DNA of 64,000 nt. It comes from Candidatus Obscuribacteraceae bacterium (GTDB lineage Bacteria > Cyanobacteriota > Vampirovibrionia > Obscuribacterales > Obscuribacteraceae). Positions within the stretch are counted from its first letter, which is position 1. Every line of letters begins with the position of its first letter. The translations under genes were made by a program, and so were the position numbers. The stretch covers positions 416,001 through 480,000 of the forward strand of contig JBGASG010000001.1 of assembly GCA_044229845.1 (NCBI GenBank), written 5' to 3'. Below the pieces are notes generated by a model, which did not search any database, had not been told where the DNA came from, and saw nothing but the letters and a program-made list of their open reading frames with translations. Below, one piece after another: positions 24,910-45,747 of the stretch.

Positions 24910-25185
24910 CTATATAGGTAGTCCGCGCAATTGCCCGAGCGGATGCTCGTCTTTCCATTTTTTCTCGGCGTCGCGACACTGATCGCAGTATTCGGTTTTG
25001 CGCACTTCCGGCGACTGGTTGGAGACGACGCTACCGCCATCATGGTACGAATTTGCCAGAGGAAATAGCGTTATCTTCGCGTTGCGATACGCTTTCGGAA
25101 CTGACACCAACCCGTAAACAACCGGCACCTCCTCGATCTTGAGGGGGCAGTTGTGTAGGAAACATTGCTTTTGGGCACCACCCAT
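24910..25185 (-). CDS. Small Cys/His-rich (probable Zn-binding) protein, paralog 2
   Basis: CFLH...PVVYG...LFP...GG...YCDQCR; ATG overlaps the upstream stop (TGATG). Confidence 0.75.
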   Translation of the reverse strand: MGGAQKQCFLHNCPLKIEEVPVVYGLVSVPKAYRNAKITLFPLANSYHDGGSVVSNQSPEVRKTEYCDQCRDAEKKWKDEHPLGQLRGLPI

Positions 25186-25637
25186 CAGTTGTCTCTCCCT
25201 GAGGGTGAATCCGGATTCGGACTGTCCAGATCCCGTGCGTCCGGATTCGGTGCGGCGTCCGGATCCAGACCCGGATGAAGATGCCCGCGGTCCATCTTGT
25301 GAAGCGTCCACTCCAGATCCAGTCCCGTTAGCCTCTGACTCGGGTCGGTGGGGATATTGAATCTCTCTTTCAGTGCTCTCAGCGGGTCCTCCGGATTTGC
25401 TTCCTTCCATTCTTTCTCCGCTGCCCGACATTGCTCGCAATAGTGGACGTACATGGTGCGTGGCGAGTCTTTCGAAACACAGCATCCTCCGTTCATGAAG
25501 GAGACTGCCTTCGGGAAAAGTTTGTTTCGTGCGGCGCGATATTCATTGCTCAGGTACCTGAGCCCATATTGAATCGCAACTGGTCCCCGCACGAGCGGAA
25601 CATGATGCAGCGGGCATTCGCCGTTGATCATGTCCAT
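25185..25637 (-). CDS. Small Cys/His-rich (probable Zn-binding) protein, paralog 1, with an acidic Pro/Asp tail
   Basis: CPLH...IQYG...LFP...GGCC...YCEQCR. Confidence 0.75.
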   Translation of the reverse strand: MDMINGECPLHHVPLVRGPVAIQYGLRYLSNEYRAARNKLFPKAVSFMNGGCCVSKDSPRTMYVHYCEQCRAAEKEWKEANPEDPLRALKERFNIPTDPSQRLTGLDLEWTLHKMDRGHLHPGLDPDAAPNPDARDLDSPNPDSPSGRDN

Positions 25638-25856
25638 CGTCTTCCGCACTAAGCCATAGAGCTTGTCGAGCAATTCGTCGATTCTCGTCGGGGAGGAAAG
25701 TGTTGCGTCTGACTCTATCTTAGTAGACAGCTGCTCTATTGTGGTGTCGCCGGTTGGCTTTAATAAACAATCCAAAAGAACGAGCGAGCGATATCTTGCT
25801 CGCTCGCCCACTCGCTCATCATGTGCTGCGCTTCTTGTCTGCGCGGCGCGTCAGGG

Positions 25857-31247: not shown

Positions 31248-31793
31248 TTATGCCCCGGTTTGCTTCCACCGGATGCTTTTGAAGGAGAACATAACCTCCA
31301 GCAAGTGGCTGGAGTATTGTTCTTCTGGAGACATGAAGATGACTTCTTGAACCAGCCTGCCATCGCCGAGACAGTCGACCAGCACCCAGAAGAGTTCTTC
31401 CTTCGTTTTCAACCAGCAACCGCTGATGACCAGGGCATCCTTGCCATTCCAGCTCTCCAGCGAGAACTTGGACGGTGTGAAGGTGCGCGGGCTTTCGGCT
31501 CCGCGCAAAAGGTCTGAGTACTCTTCCAGATTTTCCTTCAGCAAGCAACGTGGCGTAGAAGCGAAGAGCGCCTGGACGCGTGCTGCCTGAACGTCGTCGT
31601 ACGGGCTGAGCTGCAGGAAGATCGAAAACTGCACGCGCGAGTCGCGCGGTGAATAGCAAGTCATTTGCTGGCGGCGTCCTGCGATTTGTTTGATGCGCCC
31701 CTCTGCCGAGCAGATCCATCCGGCGGGCAATAACAAGTGCTCGATGCTGCCGAAGTTGGTGATTTCCAGATTTTTGCCAGTCACAGTGCTCAT
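31248..31793 (-). CDS. Hypothetical protein coupled to the giant gene (candidate immunity or chaperone; PsbP/Mog1-like LPxGW...LNG pattern)
   Basis: ATG at 31793 overlaps the giant gene's TGA (ATGA). Confidence 0.7.
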   Translation of the reverse strand: MSTVTGKNLEITNFGSIEHLLLPAGWICSAEGRIKQIAGRRQQMTCYSPRDSRVQFSIFLQLSPYDDVQAARVQALFASTPRCLLKENLEEYSDLLRGAESPRTFTPSKFSLESWNGKDALVISGCWLKTKEELFWVLVDCLGDGRLVQEVIFMSPEEQYSSHLLEVMFSFKSIRWKQTGA

Positions 31794-34700
31794 CTCCACA
31801 GTGCTCCATAAAGAGCGCCTGCCGGCGCGGTCATATTTTGACTGGAACCCCACTGGTTGCTGATGTCGACCAGTAAGTGTCCCGGGTTATTTGGATCAGG
31901 ACGATATCCAGTGACGAGCACTACGTGGCTGCCGCCGCCGCTCTGTCCAAACAACGGATTGCGCGTGTCGACCCAAACTACTGCAGGCAATTTACCATTG
32001 TTCTGGATTAGCAGGCGTTCGAACTCATCAACTGTCTGAGGTGCCAAAATGTCGTTCTGGAATTTTGGTGCTATCCAAGATTTGTTGCCGGCGAAGATAA
32101 ATCCGGTCTCGCTGCCTGGCGCGATCGAACCGTCGGGCAACCGATTCGGCACGATCTGATTGTAGACGCCTTGCAGGTCTTCGGTGGGAATATTTGGTCT
32201 GGTACTAATTTGATATTCTTTGAGGTGCCCATTTTCCAGACGGTATAGAACTAAGTGTTCACCGTCCGGATTGCCGGGTGACGGCGGGTCTTTGAAATAC
32301 TGGATGCGATCACCCGGTTGTACTTTGATGACCTGTCTGGTGGCGTCATCGATGTACTCGGTGGCATTCGCCCAGTGTGTGTTGACGGCGACGTTCTGGA
32401 ATATCTGGTCGGCCCAGTTTCGGTAACCGTCGACTTTGATGTCCGGCGGGAAACGTCCGTTGAAGTTCTTGTCGAACGCTTTGGACAAGACATCGGTGGA
32501 TTTGGTTGATTTGTCCCAGCCGTGGACGGCGTCGGCGTAGTAATCCAGACCATCGACTCGCGATATGTCGACGACCACGCCGTTTGGCAGAGTGGTCTTG
32601 CCGGACAGAGCCGCATCGACAATCAAACGTGCTGCATCTTGCGGTGACTTAGTGAATACGCGCCCTTCGATGGTGGCGACGTTGCAGGTGAGGTTTGTGC
32701 CCTGATCGATTGTGTGGGGATTGGCGGCGTTGAACATAATTTGTTCTGCCAGTTTGACACGCTCGGCTTCGGAGAGCGCGGCATTGGTGCCGGCTCCGAG
32801 CAGGCGATCGATTTGCTGGTAAACACCGGCGACTTCCTCTCTGGTCAAGCCATTGATTGCCGCGGTGCGTTCAAAGTCGCTGGACAGTTGCAAGAAACGA
32901 TTACGCTGTGCCAGGTCGCCGAAGGCATGGTTGGCCAGTGCTCTGTAATTGGCACGCTCTACGTCGAGCGCTGCCGGCGTCCACTCATGGAAGCCGTTGC
33001 GGAACACTTTCTCGATGCTGCCATCTACGCTCTGTAATTCTACAGGCTTGTTGGCGTCGTTGGGAGTAAGGCGAAGTTTGCCGTCGCCCTGTACTTCGAC
33101 CTTGCCTTCGAATCTTTCGGAGACCCAGGTATTTGAGCCGCGCTGCGAAGTGCTCTTGGTCCAGGTAGCGCCACCATCTGTGGTGATGTAAGCAGTAAAA
33201 TTGCCTTGACCATCGGAGACTTGCAGACTGTTCAATCGCCCCTGCTGGTCATACTGATACTCGATGTTGCGGCCGGTCGGGTGCGTTACCTGCTGTACCT
33301 TTTGTTGAGCATCGCGGGCGACTTCCTCACCGGTAAAACTTCTGGAAAGCGAAGTGCCGTCCTGTCTGACGATCACATCGCCTTCCGGTTTGCGATAAAG
33401 ATAGCTGCCGTCTTCCAGAGTGCGACCGCGTGTCATGCCAATCGTCAGCTCAGGTCCATGCTCCTGTCCCAGGTGAATTTTGTCGGTGTCTTTGAGATAC
33501 GAAGCATTGTTGTCGGCGGCGTAAACAAACTGGTCGCTGCCTTTGGCTCGTTCGTATACTTTGCCGTCTTTGATCAGTGTGTACGAGCCATCGGCATGCT
33601 CGATGTAGGTGCCGTTGGACGAAGTATCGGTGAAGACAAACTGTCCGGTTCGTTGATCTTTGGTCAGGAAACCATGATTGCGTGATACCTGGTTGTCAAT
33701 GATGTCCTGCGATCCACTGTTGAGTCCGGGGAATTCTCTGCCGACCGGAATACGGCCGTCGGGACCTGGATACAGATATTGACCGTTGAGCGACACTTCG
33801 TAATGGATTGGGCCGTCAGCTTTGAAAATATCGATGGACGGACCGTTTACGCCGCCGACGCGCAATTGATCGTAAGGACCGACTTCATAGCGCTGGCCTT
33901 TGGGGAGCTGTTCCCACTGATCCGAACCGTGCTTCTTGATGAAGGTCCCGTTGGTGGAGTTGTTGTCGGTGAAGTAGTATTTGCCGTCTTTGAATTCCAG
34001 CTTGCCCTGGTCTCGCGAGACCGTCGGGATATCGCCGAGCGTGGAGTTGGTGTCGCGGCCGATTTGCAGTTCGCCGTTGGTTAGCTTGTAGTCGCGTCCA
34101 TTTATAGAAACGATGACATCTTCCGGACCGTTCGGCTTTTCCGGTTTGAATTTATTGATCCGATCCCAGACGCCGTTCCAGGCATCGGCCAGTCTTTGCT
34201 TGATCCGACCGAAGAAACCGTTGTCGCCAAACCCACCGGTGGGTGGCGCGCCAGGCGCTTCGTTGGCGCGCAACTCGCGCACCTTATCGTTGAATTCTCT
34301 GGTCTTGTAGGCGAAGACCTCACCTTCTGCCGAAGCTTGAGATTCTTTCAGCAAGGCATTTCTAGCTGCCTGAGCTTTCTCTCCTGTGATACCGGACTTG
34401 GCGAGAATCTGGTCGACTTCAGCCTCGGTCAGGCGAGCACGTCCTTGTTTAACTGCATCGGCCAGCACCGGTTCGAGATTGGCTTTCAGAGAGGCTGCTG
34501 CTGCTTCATCCAATCCCACGCCGGCAGCTGTTTTTGCGGCGGCAGCGGCGGCTGCTCTGCCGGATATCTCGATGGCTGCGCCACCAACGATGGGGGCAAA
34601 GTTTAGTGCTCCGTCGACAACACCCAGTCCGATCTGTTTGAGGATGTTGGCGGTTGATCCGTCGAAATCGTTGCCTTCGACAGCTTTGAGCACCGCAATG

Positions 34701-37700
34701 CGGGCTACCGGATCGAGAGCAGCTGCCGCGGCGCCGATAGCCAGAACTACCTCCGGTGCCAGAGTACCACCCGACGCCGCAATAGCGAGAATGCCGCTGG
34801 CGACAAAGAGTGCTCCTTCGCCGAACTGGATCAGTTTCTCGGCAAAATCCTTTTTTGAATCTTTGTACTGTTGCAGGCTCTCTTCGAAAAACTGCATGAG
34901 CTGAGCTTGATCTGCAGCGGAGAGATTGCGGCCGTCAAGCTGGTAATGTTGCAGCGCTTCGGCATAAAGTTGCAGCGAGCGCTGTGCTGTTTGCAAGGTG
35001 CCATCGGGACTATAGCCGCTGTCGCTATGTTGTAAGCGCCCCAGGGCATCGAAATAGAACTGGCGACCGTCGGAGTGAACCGGTGTCAAAAGCGTTGCAT
35101 AGTTGGACTTTTCTTTGCCGTCTACCTTGCGCAGGAAATCATCGTCGAGGTCGGAGCCATAACGTTTGGCGTAGTCTTGTTTTAGTTGCTGCAGCGCCGC
35201 CGGATCGAGCTTCTGCAAGTCGGCTTTGAAATCACCGTATTTGGTGCCGTCGCCGACCGCGAAAGAGCGCAGGCGATCGGCGAGGTCGATATTGCCGCCC
35301 CGTTCCATGATGGACTTGGCGAATTTTATCTGGTTGTCGTCGGTCAATTGCAACCGATACAGATAGTCTTCTTGCTTGTCTTTTGGCTGTTTGGCAATCT
35401 CTGAAAGAACGTCTGTGCGGGGGAAGCCCATCCAGATCTTGTCGTCGAGGTTCAGCTTGCCGTCTTGAAGCATGCGGGCGAAGAATGGTTGTGGATCGCT
35501 TCCTACCGAAAAGGCACCGGATGGTCGTCGACTTTGACCTTCATTGAGGATGCGACCGAAGGTGCCTGCCATCACACCGGCAATGGCGAAAACGCGCGGG
35601 TCTTCGTCGCGCTGATTCCAGCCCAAGCCGATGCTCGAATTCAGGCGACCGTCTTTCTTTAGCTGGTCGCGCAGGTTCTTGTCCTGCAATACGACTTCCA
35701 GGTCTTTGTAAAGCTGTTGTGCGCTGGCACCGGTGATGGAGTCATAAAACAGTTTGTCTTGCGGATTGAGTTCGTTAGCCCGCGGAATCTTGCCGGTCTC
35801 TTTGAGAGCTTGCAAAAGATCTTGAGCGAGAAACTTGTGCGCGTCGTCCAGTTCTTTGCTGACTTTGTCGTCGACTTGCTTGCGATATGCTTCATCCGTG
35901 CGGTAACGCACTTGTTCGGCCGGACTCATGAAGTAGATGCTTTCGATCATGCCGTTCTTGTTGTCTTTGGAGACATCGAGCACGGAGCGATGCACTTCTT
36001 GCGAGAGTTCGTAGGACGAAGCACCGACTTTGCTGTCGAACAAGTCGAGGGCGCGCTGCTTGACGTTGGGGTCGAGATTGAAGGAATTGAGCGCGCGCTC
36101 CAGGTCCTGGCGGAATGCCGGGTTTAGCTTTGGATCGTGTCCGCGTCTATAATCCGTCTCACTCAGGTGTTCGATTGCCGAGTAGATTTCTTCAGGCTTG
36201 TGGTGGTCGGAAAGTTCGCTTATTAAAGATCCGCCGCGGATCAGTTTGTCTTCCCACTTTGTCAGGTCATTGACTGTGTGCTGGCGGTCAGGCTCGCGCT
36301 GATCTATCAGTTGATTGGCAGCGTCGACATCATTCTTCTTGGCGCCGTCATAACGTGACTCGATGATGTCGCGCGGGAAGCCCAATTCGGCTAGTTCCCA
36401 CGGACCCCACTTACCTTTGTCCAGCAGGTTGAAAATCCAGCTGTCGGCGGATCCGCCTTGGTTAAGACCGTTCTTGTTGTAACCGTCGTAGATGGCTTGT
36501 TTGATGATGCCATTCACGATGCGGTCTTGTAGCCATTGATCGCGGTCACCATTAGGAACACCGGTAGGATCGCTGTTGATGCGCTTGAGCCGATCCCGCA
36601 GCTGCGGATCTGACTGTATTAATGCTTCCGCATCGAGCATGATGCGTTGCGGACTGGCATGCATCGCGCGGTCGTACAAAAGCTTGTCGAGCGGGTTGAG
36701 CTCCTGGATGTTCTCGCCGTTTTTCAAGCGCTTCAGCAAGTCTTGCGTCAGAACGGCGTCGGCGTCTTTTAGTTTGCCGGCTTTGTCGTCGATTGATTTA
36801 CGGAACCCTTCATCGGTGCGATAACGCTCGTAATCGGCAGTGCTCAATCCGATTTTGTCTTGCAAGTATCTGCCGATGTCGGGCTTCGTTTCGTTATATA
36901 GATCCGGTGCGGGAGACTGACCGGTCGAAAGGTTTTCCAGCGCGCGGTGCACTTTGACATAGAAGTCGCGGTCGGACTGATCTTCAGGCAGCAGGGGTCC
37001 CTGCCAGCCGCTCTGGAATCTGAGCTCCAGCTCGCGCCCGTGGGCGTAACGGCGGCGCTCTTCAGGCGACGCGTTTTCGAGAGCCAGCTCGACGTTTTTC
37101 TTGTTGCTGCCGCCGAAATAACCGGCGTTGTTCACATCAGCTATTGTTTCCAGCGAGATGTGACCTTGCTGCAAAATGTCGTTGGCGATGCGCTTATCTT
37201 TGCCGAAAGCGTCATTGAGTTGTTGGACGAAATCCGGGTTGTGCTGCAGCGTCAGGCGCGCTGCCATGGCTGAGTTGTCGCTGCCTCGCAGTGCGATAGC
37301 CAGGAGGCTCATGTCTTTGTTTTGCACTGCCATTTGAGCCAGTGTTACGTCATCGGCGGCGGTGCGGTTGTCGATGCCCTTTTGCAAAATTTTCAGGGCT
37401 TGTTTGGTTTCTTCGCTGACGTTCGGAGTTTCGTTGATGGCATCGATGTATGACTTACCGTAGACTGCTCGGTAATCTGCATCGAGTTGCTGAATTTGAT
37501 CGGAGCGCAGTGTCGAAAAAATCTCGCGGATGTTTTTGTCCGAATCTTTGTTGCCGTCGCGCAATCTTTGTAGTTCGTACGCGAGTTGTCCGGCATCGTT
37601 GGTGTGATCGTCTTTGCGATTGAGAATCGCGATCAACTTTTCGGCGTCTGAACCGCCCAGCTTCTTGATGTCGTTAAGCAGCGCGTCAGGTCCCTGATTG

Positions 37701-38038
37701 TTGAACTTCTGCTGATACGTGCTGGTCAGAGCTTTGCGATCGTCTTCGCTCAATGTGGAGAGAATGCGCTCGGCGCGATCTTTGTCTTTGTCGTTCAGCG
37801 CGTCGTGCAATTTCTGCGCGATTACCTGACGAGTGGGATCGTCGAGAGTCGGCGGTTTATCGACCGTGACCGATGGCAGCCCGGTATTGTCCGCGGAGGC
37901 ACCGGCGCGCTGCTGCGTGACGATTGCCGAGTTGCCCGGCGTCGTGAGCGAGGCATCGTCGTCAACCTTGGTGGTATCGGTTGCCGGCTTAGTCTGAACT
38001 GGACGGTCGGCGACCGCAGTTTGATCGTTTTCACCCAT
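31790..38038 (-). CDS. Giant (~2,082 aa) multidomain protein: annexin-like repeats, hydrophobic hairpin, 2 FHA domains, YD-like repeat, C-terminal papain-like Cys peptidase
   Basis: FHA motifs GR...SRxH/Q...S(T)NGT twice; YQYDQQGRL; DQGxxxTC, SHVVLVTGY, NQWG. Confidence 0.85.
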   Translation of the reverse strand: MGENDQTAVADRPVQTKPATDTTKVDDDASLTTPGNSAIVTQQRAGASADNTGLPSVTVDKPPTLDDPTRQVIAQKLHDALNDKDKDRAERILSTLSEDDRKALTSTYQQKFNNQGPDALLNDIKKLGGSDAEKLIAILNRKDDHTNDAGQLAYELQRLRDGNKDSDKNIREIFSTLRSDQIQQLDADYRAVYGKSYIDAINETPNVSEETKQALKILQKGIDNRTAADDVTLAQMAVQNKDMSLLAIALRGSDNSAMAARLTLQHNPDFVQQLNDAFGKDKRIANDILQQGHISLETIADVNNAGYFGGSNKKNVELALENASPEERRRYAHGRELELRFQSGWQGPLLPEDQSDRDFYVKVHRALENLSTGQSPAPDLYNETKPDIGRYLQDKIGLSTADYERYRTDEGFRKSIDDKAGKLKDADAVLTQDLLKRLKNGENIQELNPLDKLLYDRAMHASPQRIMLDAEALIQSDPQLRDRLKRINSDPTGVPNGDRDQWLQDRIVNGIIKQAIYDGYNKNGLNQGGSADSWIFNLLDKGKWGPWELAELGFPRDIIESRYDGAKKNDVDAANQLIDQREPDRQHTVNDLTKWEDKLIRGGSLISELSDHHKPEEIYSAIEHLSETDYRRGHDPKLNPAFRQDLERALNSFNLDPNVKQRALDLFDSKVGASSYELSQEVHRSVLDVSKDNKNGMIESIYFMSPAEQVRYRTDEAYRKQVDDKVSKELDDAHKFLAQDLLQALKETGKIPRANELNPQDKLFYDSITGASAQQLYKDLEVVLQDKNLRDQLKKDGRLNSSIGLGWNQRDEDPRVFAIAGVMAGTFGRILNEGQSRRPSGAFSVGSDPQPFFARMLQDGKLNLDDKIWMGFPRTDVLSEIAKQPKDKQEDYLYRLQLTDDNQIKFAKSIMERGGNIDLADRLRSFAVGDGTKYGDFKADLQKLDPAALQQLKQDYAKRYGSDLDDDFLRKVDGKEKSNYATLLTPVHSDGRQFYFDALGRLQHSDSGYSPDGTLQTAQRSLQLYAEALQHYQLDGRNLSAADQAQLMQFFEESLQQYKDSKKDFAEKLIQFGEGALFVASGILAIAASGGTLAPEVVLAIGAAAAALDPVARIAVLKAVEGNDFDGSTANILKQIGLGVVDGALNFAPIVGGAAIEISGRAAAAAAAKTAAGVGLDEAAAASLKANLEPVLADAVKQGRARLTEAEVDQILAKSGITGEKAQAARNALLKESQASAEGEVFAYKTREFNDKVRELRANEAPGAPPTGGFGDNGFFGRIKQRLADAWNGVWDRINKFKPEKPNGPEDVIVSINGRDYKLTNGELQIGRDTNSTLGDIPTVSRDQGKLEFKDGKYYFTDNNSTNGTFIKKHGSDQWEQLPKGQRYEVGPYDQLRVGGVNGPSIDIFKADGPIHYEVSLNGQYLYPGPDGRIPVGREFPGLNSGSQDIIDNQVSRNHGFLTKDQRTGQFVFTDTSSNGTYIEHADGSYTLIKDGKVYERAKGSDQFVYAADNNASYLKDTDKIHLGQEHGPELTIGMTRGRTLEDGSYLYRKPEGDVIVRQDGTSLSRSFTGEEVARDAQQKVQQVTHPTGRNIEYQYDQQGRLNSLQVSDGQGNFTAYITTDGGATWTKSTSQRGSNTWVSERFEGKVEVQGDGKLRLTPNDANKPVELQSVDGSIEKVFRNGFHEWTPAALDVERANYRALANHAFGDLAQRNRFLQLSSDFERTAAINGLTREEVAGVYQQIDRLLGAGTNAALSEAERVKLAEQIMFNAANPHTIDQGTNLTCNVATIEGRVFTKSPQDAARLIVDAALSGKTTLPNGVVVDISRVDGLDYYADAVHGWDKSTKSTDVLSKAFDKNFNGRFPPDIKVDGYRNWADQIFQNVAVNTHWANATEYIDDATRQVIKVQPGDRIQYFKDPPSPGNPDGEHLVLYRLENGHLKEYQISTRPNIPTEDLQGVYNQIVPNRLPDGSIAPGSETGFIFAGNKSWIAPKFQNDILAPQTVDEFERLLIQNNGKLPAVVWVDTRNPLFGQSGGGSHVVLVTGYRPDPNNPGHLLVDISNQWGSSQNMTAPAGALYGALWR

Positions 38039-38178
38039 TTTTAGTAAAACGAATCCTTCGCTTACTGTGCGTAAGCGTGTGTTCGCGAGCACGCACTCTC
38101 GGTAGCCGCAGCTTGGAGGGAAGCTGCCGGCGAAAAAACGCAGTGCGAAATCTGGTGGTGGTGAACGGGGGTTAGTGA

Positions 38179-38207
38179 ATTATAGAAGTGGCCGCCGGGG
38201 ATGTCAA
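38179..38207 (-). promoter_or_regulatory. Perfect consensus sigma70 promoter for the giant gene
   Basis: TTGACA-N17-TATAAT on the minus strand. Confidence 0.85.
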
Positions 38208-42104: not shown

Positions 42105-42665
42105 TCAGACCAGCTTTGCCCGCCGATGCCAGAGTTTCAAGTGCTCCGGCAGGTCCCCGTCCCGCCGCGATCGAGCGATTTCTTGCACGATGGTTCTCTC
42201 GGCGGCGTTGCCGAAAAATCCTGTGTCCCCGGCGAATTTGTTGATGCCTGTGCCGGCTTGCATCGTGAACATGCGCATGCCGCTACTGACGCCCTTGTCC
42301 ACCCAGAAATTGCCGCCCGCTGGAACCGGCTGCATGGCGCTCAGCGCTGCTGCTTTGATGCCTGTTTTGAGAAACGGTGCGGTGCCCGGATATGCCTCGG
42401 CGAACCCGGCTAAACCGCGATTGACACCGGCGGAAAGCAGGGCTGTATCCAGCGCTACGCCGCCAGCCACGCCGACTTTGAAGAGGGTGCTGTCATGCTT
42501 TGCCGGGTCGACAATCTCCAGTTGCGGCAGGTCGACCGGACTGATGTGGTTGAAGAGCTGCGTGATGCCATCGACAGGCATTTCGATGGCGCCATAAAAG
42601 ACACCCTGTCCCAATTCGGACAGACCATGCAGTACTTCCTTGGCACTCGGGAGTTCTAAAGACAT
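42105..42665 (-). CDS. Hypothetical Gly/Ala-rich protein, possibly frameshifted near 42170
   Basis: 186 aa ORF; an alternative frame gives a more typical tail ending at 42040. Confidence 0.6.
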   Translation of the reverse strand: MSLELPSAKEVLHGLSELGQGVFYGAIEMPVDGITQLFNHISPVDLPQLEIVDPAKHDSTLFKVGVAGGVALDTALLSAGVNRGLAGFAEAYPGTAPFLKTGIKAAALSAMQPVPAGGNFWVDKGVSSGMRMFTMQAGTGINKFAGDTGFFGNAAERTIVQEIARSRRDGDLPEHLKLWHRRAKLV

Positions 42666-44844: not shown

Positions 44845-45747
44845 TCAGGCAGTTACTTCGCGTGGTCCTTTCAGGTCCCCTTTCCACACGGCTGCGAATC
44901 CGTATTTATTGCCACCAGTCAGGTTGGCGTTGACTTTGTTGCGATCCCAGGTTGTTGTTGTTGGATCTGCCGGGTCGGCGACGACATAGCCTCCCTGGCT
45001 ATCTCTGCCGATGATGTATACGAAATGGTTGGGCGCGTTGAGAATTACTCCTTTTCCTTCCTGCAAAGCCCGATCGAGGTCGGCGATGTTGGTGTCACTT
45101 GTATGGTCTTCGGCTTGTAGACCGTGTTGACGCGCCCACTCGGCCATTTGCTTCGGCACTCCTGGGAACTGTCCGGCAGATCTTGTCGACTTGCCGCCGC
45201 TTTGCGGAATCACTTCATTGATCAGTTGTTGGCGGTTGGCTTCTGTGGGTGCCATCACACCCCAGTCGGCCAGCGCGTTGAGAAACGAGGTCGGTCCGCA
45301 AGCGAACCAATCTCTTCCATTTGGTGCATCCTTTTCTTGTGAGATGTAGAAACTGGATCGAACAGCTTTGAGACGTGCAGGTTCTTGCTTTCCTGCTTTG
45401 ATCAAATCCTGGGTACTGACACCGCGGTCGATCGATGCTACTTGCGTCGGTGGGGCAGTGGTGCCGTCGCCGATCACTCTCTGTTTGGTGTTGTCTGCGA
45501 CAGGCGGATTTGGTGCCGGTTGTACTTCCGTACGTGCGACCGGGGGAGTTGGTGCTCCTTTTGTGCTGGTTTCGTAGTTGGCGGGAGTAAAAACGATCGT
45601 TGACGGCTCAGGTCCTCCGGGACGACGTTCAAAAGTAGCCGAGACTGCTTTTGCGTTTTCCGGTATCAATCCGCATTGAAGATAAGCTTCAACGTCAGGA
45701 TTTACACACGTTTCGTGACGTGCAGAAAGTTGCGTACCTTCGACCAC
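44845..45747 (-). CDS. C39-like cysteine peptidase domain protein
   Basis: Q...ACGPTS, NHFVYIIG, VADP (Cys-His-Asp). Confidence 0.8.
   Translation of the reverse strand: MVEGTQLSARHETCVNPDVEAYLQCGLIPENAKAVSATFERRPGGPEPSTIVFTPANYETSTKGAPTPPVARTEVQPAPNPPVADNTKQRVIGDGTTAPPTQVASIDRGVSTQDLIKAGKQEPARLKAVRSSFYISQEKDAPNGRDWFACGPTSFLNALADWGVMAPTEANRQQLINEVIPQSGGKSTRSAGQFPGVPKQMAEWARQHGLQAEDHTSDTNIADLDRALQEGKGVILNAPNHFVYIIGRDSQGGYVVADPADPTTTTWDRNKVNANLTGGNKYGFAAVWKGDLKGPREVTA

Follow-up and report, generated by a model that had tools for sequence, protein, structure and literature searches.

A giant annexin-hairpin protein with a papain-fold peptidase domain and a coupled PsbP-fold partner: a candidate polymorphic effector system of Obscuribacterales

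Results

We analysed a 64,000-nucleotide stretch of DNA (the window) from a Candidatus Obscuribacteraceae bacterium (contig JBGASG010000001.1, positions 416,001 to 480,000), whose genome (G000; Obscuribacterales, Melainabacteria) is 88% complete. The subject is a minus-strand gene for a giant effector-like protein of 2,082 amino acids (aa; 31790..38038) and the 181-aa partner gene behind it. Open reading frame (ORF) analysis of the window gives ATG 38038 as the likely start of the giant gene, in a longer frame that is open from 38092 to 31790; its stop overlaps the start of the partner gene (31793-31248) by ATGA. A predicted sigma-70-type promoter, TTGACA-N17-TATAAT (38179..38207, minus), lies 141 nt upstream of the ATG and matches the consensus at 12/12 positions. 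Only 2 such perfect sites occur in the 5.16-Mb genome, and this one is retained as TTGACA-N17-TATACT in the same-genus genome G001. An earlier model-made reading of the bare letters (the original prediction) had named the open frame and its order of domains, the ATGA overlap with the 181-aa gene and the perfect promoter at 38207-38179, and all were found in the places it gave. So were the codons for Cys (TGC, 32686-32684), His (CAC, 31927-31925) and Asn (AAC, 31858-31856), which correspond to C1785, H2038 and N2061, with Q1779 completing the Q-x5-C pattern.

The giant gene is intact on a single contig from a public DNA run, which over 10 kb shows 2 differing letters and 1 gap; this run is possibly the source of the window. 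Near-identical DNA is present in public sludge, bioreactor, biofilm and aquaculture runs, any of which may be that source. Contigs from 3 RNA runs were rejected as evidence of transcription: each run gave 5-8 short, scattered contigs, which also fell beyond the unit.

Residues 1691-2082 of the giant protein (31793..32968, minus; Q1779/C1785/H2038/N2061) form a papain-fold (clan CA-like) peptidase domain, as judged by a predicted model, structural matches and a profile. The model is confident (predicted local distance difference test, pLDDT, 90.5; predicted template modelling score, pTM, 0.91), and at least 47 of the 50 structural matches listed are papain-clan proteins. The best match is the calpain-1 core, at an only modest Z of 9.1 (root mean square deviation, rmsd, 3.7; 200 residues aligned). 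Alr0975, PeiR, C39 domains and staphopain (Z 8.2) are among the other leading matches, none of which stands out, and the Citrobacter CdiA-CT peptidase (PDB 8ssm) aligns with Z 8.1 and rmsd 2.5 over 124 residues. Foldseek with the model returned zero matches at E 0.001, and searching the sequences of solved structures with this domain alone was unproductive. A profile built from 26 relatives aligned to the His..Asn-Trp region of dionain and cathepsin S, both C1 peptidases (E 5e-4 to 2e-3). In alignments of 26 and 34 family sequences Q, H and N are invariant and C is at least 90% conserved, and the Q-C-H-N set is complete in 142/150 of the best relatives. The modelled domain is a papain fold with a Cys-His-Asn triad and an oxyanion Gln, and may act in proteolysis. 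The original prediction had proposed a papain-like peptidase and named the lack of a papain fold as the finding that would tell against it; such a fold was predicted with confidence.

The domain has no named family. With 26 members as queries, Pfam at E 0.1 gave no match to Tox-PL1, Tox-PL2, Tox-PL3 or a C39 family, the sole exception being Peptidase_C39_2 in 1 member (E 0.004); NCBIfam assigned no named family to 34 members, and the Tox-PL-2 model had no match in 3 genomes. By profile, then, the peptidase is outside the Tox-PL1, Tox-PL2, Tox-PL3 and C39 toxin families, and its third catalytic residue is Asn, not Asp. The family is large, with 2,391 representatives (50% clustering) at E 0.001 and 1,109 at 1e-30. 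The host genome holds 15 peptidase frames across 14 loci, and matches occur in 18/30 other genomes, all of the same order and with 2-38 matches per genome; some near-complete relatives lack the family. The nearest Atlas cluster is mostly Melainabacteria, and Atlas clusters also indicate members in Myxococcota and Pseudomonadota. In a sample of 200 genomes from the phylum, 36 genomes of other classes had distant relatives that stand alone and measure 340-900 aa. Five loci of this kind (L159-L163, in G084, G045, G036, G096 and G075) encode peptidases that are often in tandem and have Ser/Pro-rich N-termini.

Most family members are 400-1,200 aa long and end in the peptidase or in a conserved helical tail. 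Tails of 100-270 aa behind the peptidase were considered as variable toxins and rejected, as 86/106 fall in one helical cluster. The N-termini vary and include YD runs, LysM-like parts, low-complexity tails and the annexin scaffold described below. Some proteins hold up to three peptidase copies, split copies occur, and in some giants the peptidase is internal, ahead of PRTase-CE, phosphatase or GGDEF domains. Two loci (L126 and L127; G018:C29 and G014:C27) encode giants of 3,000-6,800 aa with the peptidase and two or three GGDEF domains.

The 181-aa partner (31248..31793, minus) has a PsbP/Mog1p fold in its predicted structure (pLDDT 89.5) and belongs to a short type that has no N-terminal tail; from this model and its coupling to the peptidase it is a candidate cognate inhibitor. 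Its structural matches are PsbP (Z 13.0), TplEi (11.2), DcrB (9.0), Tsi3 (8.1), PA3488 (7.9) and SciW (7.6), and its identity to PsbP/Mog1p-fold proteins of type VI secretion systems (T6SS) is 7-15%. No Pfam family was found for 24 partner members, and the partner loci of 3 genomes gave no hit to the DcrB family. Word-indexed searches recovered only 3 and 6 relatives; they gave no longer fused forms, which is weak evidence. There are 16 partner copies in the host genome. Among 78 partner frames, which include near-duplicates from G000 and G001, 30 are short like the 181-aa protein, 32 have a long polar tail, 4 have a hydrophobic tail, 11 have no clear start and 1 is fused. In one further gene (L029:9215-11827; G000:C8:79214-81826), 99.5% identical in G001, a partner domain is fused to a peptidase whose catalytic Cys is replaced by Gly; it sits within a cluster of peptidase and partner genes.

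We then asked how closely the two families are tied. In 6 genomes, with hits within one frame or split gene merged, a same-strand partner lies no more than 2.5 kb downstream at 34/68 peptidase loci, against 0.18 expected, and upstream at 6; 37/58 partners have a peptidase upstream. The partner rates leave out loci that were retrieved partly via the partner, which contain duplicates. Each family is present in 18/30 other genomes, with concordant presence or absence in 28/30, and in G016, one of the two exceptions, a profile search revealed an adjacent peptidase-partner pair. Tree distances of 34 cognate pairs are correlated (Mantel r 0.45, p 0.0005), as are those of the 28 pairs left once close orthologs are removed (r 0.44) and those of the 7 pairs within the host genome (r 0.78, p 0.005). 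Some loci are arrays, for example peptidase-partner-partner-partner-peptidase, and both tandem and orphan partners were seen.

Proteins that share the N-terminal scaffold of the giant protein were compared as well. The partner is the next gene for 7/11 peptidase-bearing scaffold proteins versus 0/22 peptidase-free ones. Of the remaining 4/11, one has it 3.4 kb further on, two lack it and one ends at a contig edge. One of the 22 peptidase-free scaffold genes is overlapped by a separate peptidase gene with its own partner. Partner-coupled peptidase paralogs in the host genome have no hydrophobic segment. Thus, the partner follows the peptidase and not the hydrophobic hairpin, and the link between partner gene and toxin-like domain drawn in the original prediction holds across downstream placement, mirrored trees and next-gene counts.

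Comparison with G001 revealed an exchanged block of cargo and partner (31301..34300; no strand). Between G000 and G001, most flanking windows are about 90-98% identical in DNA, the scaffold is 74-87% identical and the block 50-67%; this block runs from just behind the hairpin to the 3' end of the partner gene. At the protein level the G001 ortholog of the giant is 73% identical overall, 79-96% up to aa 1200 and 39-63% beyond, and the partner proteins are 54% identical. Between these genomes the remaining peptidase paralogs reach 95-100% identity, and the partners of those paralogs 90-98%. On these alignments the cargo is exchanged together with its downstream gene, in a block seen in one genome pair. 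A 207-aa membrane protein just behind the partner (31208-30585, minus) was considered as a further cassette member and rejected: it lies outside the block, and apart from a G001 ortholog it has no relatives in the genome or the compared loci. That ortholog spans three frames.

The scaffold begins behind an acidic, low-complexity N-terminus (aa 1-60; 37860..38038, minus) that has no hydrophobic signal and may serve in export. The first 60 residues of family proteins contain more D, E and S than the genome's proteins. Hydropathy windows, used with no signal-peptide program, showed no hydrophobic window near the N-terminus, in line with the claimed lack of a signal peptide. An LPxLxID-like N-terminal motif is enriched but rare (7/139 vs 14/2,599), and we do not claim it as a signal. 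The first annexin-like helical region spans about aa 60-420 (36780..37860, minus; Pfam Annexin at aa 74-136), and a profile places a second annexin repeat at aa 921-975 (35114..35278, minus). The Gly/Ala-rich hairpin (aa 1083-1156; 34571..34792, minus) is the last conserved scaffold part and may insert into membranes; its stretches at aa 1083-1116 and 1138-1156 are the only hydrophobic windows of the protein. Pfam matched Annexin in two stretches (E 1.8e-7), FHA in two (E 5e-13) and RHS_repeat (E 2e-4), and TIGR01643 (YD) scored above cut-off. The scaffold profile matches annexin VI (E 6e-17) and annexin V (E 3e-15), and an annexin repeat was detected in 7/14 scaffold members; by profile, the repeats are true annexin homologs. 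The annexin loop reads GDGT and the GxGTD calcium motif is absent; calcium-dependent lipid binding is putative.

Behind the hairpin lie FHA domain 1 (aa 1326-1394; 33857..34063, minus; GR, SxxQ, SxNGT), FHA domain 2 (about aa 1432-1530; 33449..33745, minus; GR, SxxH, SxNGT) and, within a short beta-rich linker, a single YD/RHS-like repeat (aa 1576-1612; 33203..33313, minus). FHA domains bind phosphothreonine through GR, SxxH and NG residues. This set is complete in the second domain, and Gln replaces His in the first; binding is predicted from these residues. Judged by its motifs the giant protein is not an Rhs toxin, as it has one YD repeat only and no PxxxxDPxG motif. The annexin-like repeats, hairpin, two FHA domains and YD-like repeat of the original prediction are thus all present, the last as one repeat only.

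The scaffold carries diverse cargo. It matches in 13/30 other genomes; two matches in G016 (C3:66518 and C1:1113957) lie in open frames of 13,687 and 9,057 aa. We examined 33 scaffold proteins of about 50 loci listed, 4 of them cut by contig or locus ends, and grouped them on their last 350 residues. They fall into 15 different C-terminal groups, and 11 carry the peptidase. Other cargo comprises metallopeptidase-like domains (one to three copies) and EDR1/transglutaminase-like, GGDEF, PRTase-CE, phosphatase, methyltransferase, kinase-like and FHA domains. In the host genome two more giants share the annexin-to-hairpin region, and one of them ends in an HExxH domain. The other, of 2,321 aa (L035; G000:C8:656000-673000; ortholog L174), has an EDR1/transglutaminase-like domain and two kinase-like ones at its end. 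Behind it come five kinase-like genes in tandem, in which the Lys and HGDLKPE motifs are preserved; the same kinase-like subfamily lies near 9/33 scaffold genes. The gene behind another scaffold protein (L182:9089-10219; G004:C140) has an HExxH-like motif and leucine-rich repeats and is a further candidate immunity type. The original prediction had asked for one N-terminus with different C-termini and downstream genes, and this was found; the C-termini are far from invariant. On this comparison the giant protein has the architecture of a polymorphic toxin system, with a conserved N-terminal region and varied C-terminal enzymes. By the same sequence comparisons the peptidase-partner pair is a cassette multiplied order-wide behind many different N-termini, few of which include annexin or FHA. 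Since the cassette occurs on so many N-termini, the five parts seen here are a single combination among modules that can be exchanged.

Elsewhere in the window, a 300-aa protein (44845-45747) combines a Peptidase_C39_2 domain (E 1e-6) with an N-terminus of low complexity and is another effector-like peptidase. The start of a 186-aa Gly/Ala-rich protein (42105-42665) resembles, by eye, the N-termini of peptidase-family proteins P0034 and P0063 and of the gene behind L124. At 24910-25811 on the minus strand, two short frames that overlap have the common pattern CPLH...YC.QCR.AEK.WK..P and no Pfam match, and are possible tandem duplicates.

Known export systems were sought in 5 genomes. Phage_GPD/VgrG-type, FHIPEP (the type III/flagellar export gate) and VirB4-type proteins had no match, FtsK matches were only weak, and HlyD scored above cut-off in 1/5 genomes, which is not the host genome (88% complete). 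The host genome has two Tad pilus loci and two RcpA-like secretins (L193-L197; G000:C19, C22, C1), unlinked to the giant gene; one of the Tad loci has a small FHA gene at a distance of about 5 kb. Tad-like machines reportedly serve prey killing in Myxococcus (PMC8460266, PMC12075869). Tad pili are not specific to the system, as G005 has them without a peptidase, partner or scaffold match.

Discussion

We favour, at somewhat better than even odds, the reading that this locus represents an allele within a polymorphic effector system found in Obscuribacterales, with the partner as cognate inhibitor, that is, an immunity protein. The annexin repeats, homologous to true annexins, and the Gly/Ala hairpin would form a conserved scaffold that binds and crosses membranes. 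The cargo behind the hairpin, exchanged between G000 and G001, would here consist of FHA-FHA-YD and a thiol peptidase; the FHA domains would perhaps dock it on phosphothreonine proteins, and the peptidase would cut or deamidate proteins of a rival, prey or host cell. The partner, coupled to it on the same message, would bind its cognate peptidase inside the producing cell and inhibit it, in the manner of immunity proteins and staphostatins. By analogy, the exchanged, coupled layout and a fold shared with the immunity proteins TplEi and Tsi3 suggest immunity, and a cognate antidote suggests that the substrate is also present in the producer. The original prediction of a membrane-targeting protease effector with a partner gains from the papain fold, the annexin homology, the varied C-termini of the scaffold and the tie of partner to peptidase; it missed the order-wide cassette.

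Several results weigh against this interpretation. Half of the peptidase loci (34/68) have no partner within 2.5 kb and 21/58 partners have no peptidase, and in 5/5 genomes tested from other classes the distant relatives of the peptidase came without a partner match. Two G004 scaffold genes with no detected peptidase, one of them cut by a contig end, have a partner divergently upstream. The correlation of tree distances within G001's 9 pairs alone is r 0.43 (p 0.06), and mirrored trees, read from sequence distances, show joint inheritance and not contact. No export machine is linked to the giant gene locus. Fourfold sites are far diverged along the whole giant gene, with identities of 43-57% in the scaffold and 30-50% in the cargo. 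This divergence of silent sites throughout makes faster selection on the cargo inseparable from a second replacement, and its depth marks the giant gene as an old alternative allele. Long polar tails that resemble those of the peptidase proteins themselves (32/78 partner ORFs) and hydrophobic tails (4) are odd for a cytoplasmic immunity protein, 1/150 relatives has an intact peptidase fused to the partner, and the partner fold matches EagT6 (E 6e-4), a fold that Eag chaperones share.

The last three observations bear on the strongest rival, which we consider unlikely: that the giant protein is an exported effector and the partner a chaperone, adaptor or co-exported helper of the peptidase, an Eag-like fold reused, and not an antidote. 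The partner fold is common to EagT6, SciW and DcrB, and a PsbP/MOG1-like gene beside T6SS toxins is called an adaptor in passages of Zhang et al. 2012 (PMC3482391); the effector-like tails and the fusion to an intact peptidase would also suit a helper. However, Eag chaperones, as defined in passages of Ahmad 2020 (PMC7773334), have the transmembrane segments of prePAAR/PAAR effectors as clients, whereas the present partner tracks the peptidase and follows none of the 22 peptidase-free scaffolds. No VgrG-type gene matched in the 5 genomes and no DcrB family at partner loci in the 3 genomes, and tandem and orphan copies better fit immunity. By profile and context the partner is not an Eag (DUF1795/DcrB) chaperone: the fold is shared, but there is no DUF1795 match and no PAAR match among the window's proteins.

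Quite improbable, in our estimate, is a peptidase that serves as a self-processing module, as in MARTX and Tox-PL1, and frees other cargo while the partner holds it off until delivery. Giants that carry enzyme chains, some with the peptidase internal before PRTase-CE, phosphatase or GGDEF domains, accord with this, and Tox-PL1 is described in both roles in parts of PMC3482391. In the present giant, however, no other enzyme was found and the peptidase closes the chain; family proteins are mostly 400-1,200 aa long with the peptidase or its helical tail at the C-terminus, and some have up to three copies. We give least credence to an in-house, membrane-bound signalling scaffold in which kinases phosphorylate, FHA domains read and a calpain-like peptidase is the regulated output, for although a kinase-like subfamily near 9/33 scaffold genes, the common FHA and GGDEF cargo and calpain as best structural match agree with it, no kinase gene lies within the giant protein's unit, and block exchange between close genomes, 2-38 matches per genome, absences, split copies and LysM/YD N-termini are marks of conflict proteins.

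A bolder extension of the polymorphic effector reading, rather doubtful at present, is an order-wide weapon class. Here annexin-hairpin giants would carry exchangeable enzyme chains into other cells along a route distinct from types I, III, IV, VI and VII and perhaps Tad-linked, like that of predatory myxobacteria; the papain family would be the commonest payload, the PsbP-fold protein its antidote (sometimes co-sent), and linked kinases, read by FHA, a switch. If so, supposedly free-living Obscuribacterales of sludge and soil would be contact killers or predators. Short of that, the work defines a large papain-fold family outside existing classifications, puts forward the PsbP-fold partner as a candidate for a new class of cysteine peptidase inhibitors and adds a new putative delivery scaffold, all from an uncultured lineage that is sister to the cyanobacteria. 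With many diverged cognate pairs in one genome, and two alleles of one locus, specificity could be tested directly in a laboratory strain, and a scaffold that crosses membranes would test the idea that bacterial annexins help toxins enter cells.

Comparison with known systems

MARTX toxins are likewise giant chains, in which a conserved part that crosses membranes is joined to several enzymes that can be exchanged and to a cysteine peptidase, there of caspase-like fold. The present giant differs in having no RTX family match, a papain and not a caspase-like domain and cognate downstream genes, and its genome has no HlyD above cut-off. Staphostatins are said to be lipocalin-like, whereas our partner has a PsbP fold, and, unlike in staphostatin systems, the giant protein has no signal or pro-peptide and both families have many paralogs. 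The staphopain-staphostatin and SpeB-Spi pairs are nonetheless close in logic: parts of Meehl 2005 (PMC1298937) describe an exported papain-clan protease with a small cytoplasmic 1:1 inhibitor. TplEi, Tsi3 and PA3488 (T6SS immunity) and EagT6 and SciW (chaperones) have the fold of the partner, but here it is tied to a cysteine peptidase and no VgrG-type gene was found.

Among papain-like toxins, Cpe1 with its immunity protein Cpi1, which had no structural homologs according to sections of Song 2025 (PMC12136450), and Citrobacter CdiA-CT (8ssm) likewise pair a papain-fold C-terminal toxin with a cognate immunity gene. These are described as small C39-like Cys-His-Asp domains sent by T6SS or contact-dependent inhibition, whereas the domain described here is about three times larger and uses Asn. 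Portions of Zhang et al. 2012 (PMC3482391) cover the Tox-PL1/PL2/PL3 families, the PsbP/MOG1-like adaptor in T6SS loci, annexins in PVC toxins as a proposed membrane-breaching accessory, and Imm73 of Tox-PL2 as all-alpha. In contrast to Tox-PL toxins, the present domain spans 390 aa with Q-C-H-N and no Tox-PL match, and its partner is an alpha/beta PsbP fold. Sections of Kodavali et al. 2014 (PMC3894181) describe bacterial proteins in which annexin repeats occur alongside transmembrane segments and domains of toxin, lipase or metalloprotease type; in those sections Melainabacteria are not among the lineages named, the term FHA is absent and no family of such size appears. The words Melainabacteria and annexin are likewise absent from the main text of a papain classification (PMC10318531) and a giant-gene survey (10.1101/2023.11.21.568195). 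Literature on annexin, papain and PsbP toxin themes, with subscription papers and supplements outside its scope, gave no description of the peptidase-partner family.

The original prediction knew of no described system with this architecture. That stands in so far as the peptidase family, its partner family and the annexin-hairpin scaffold appear undescribed, and it does not extend to the ingredients, since annexin-bearing toxins and papain toxin-immunity pairs are each known, as is toxin-immunity logic. The nearest likeness is to polymorphic toxin systems as set out in parts of PMC3482391: no PVC metallopeptidase, PAAR, WXG, TPS or signal peptide was found in the giant protein, but it has in common with them a conserved N-terminal part, variable C-terminal enzymes, a coupled downstream gene, and tandem and orphan partners.

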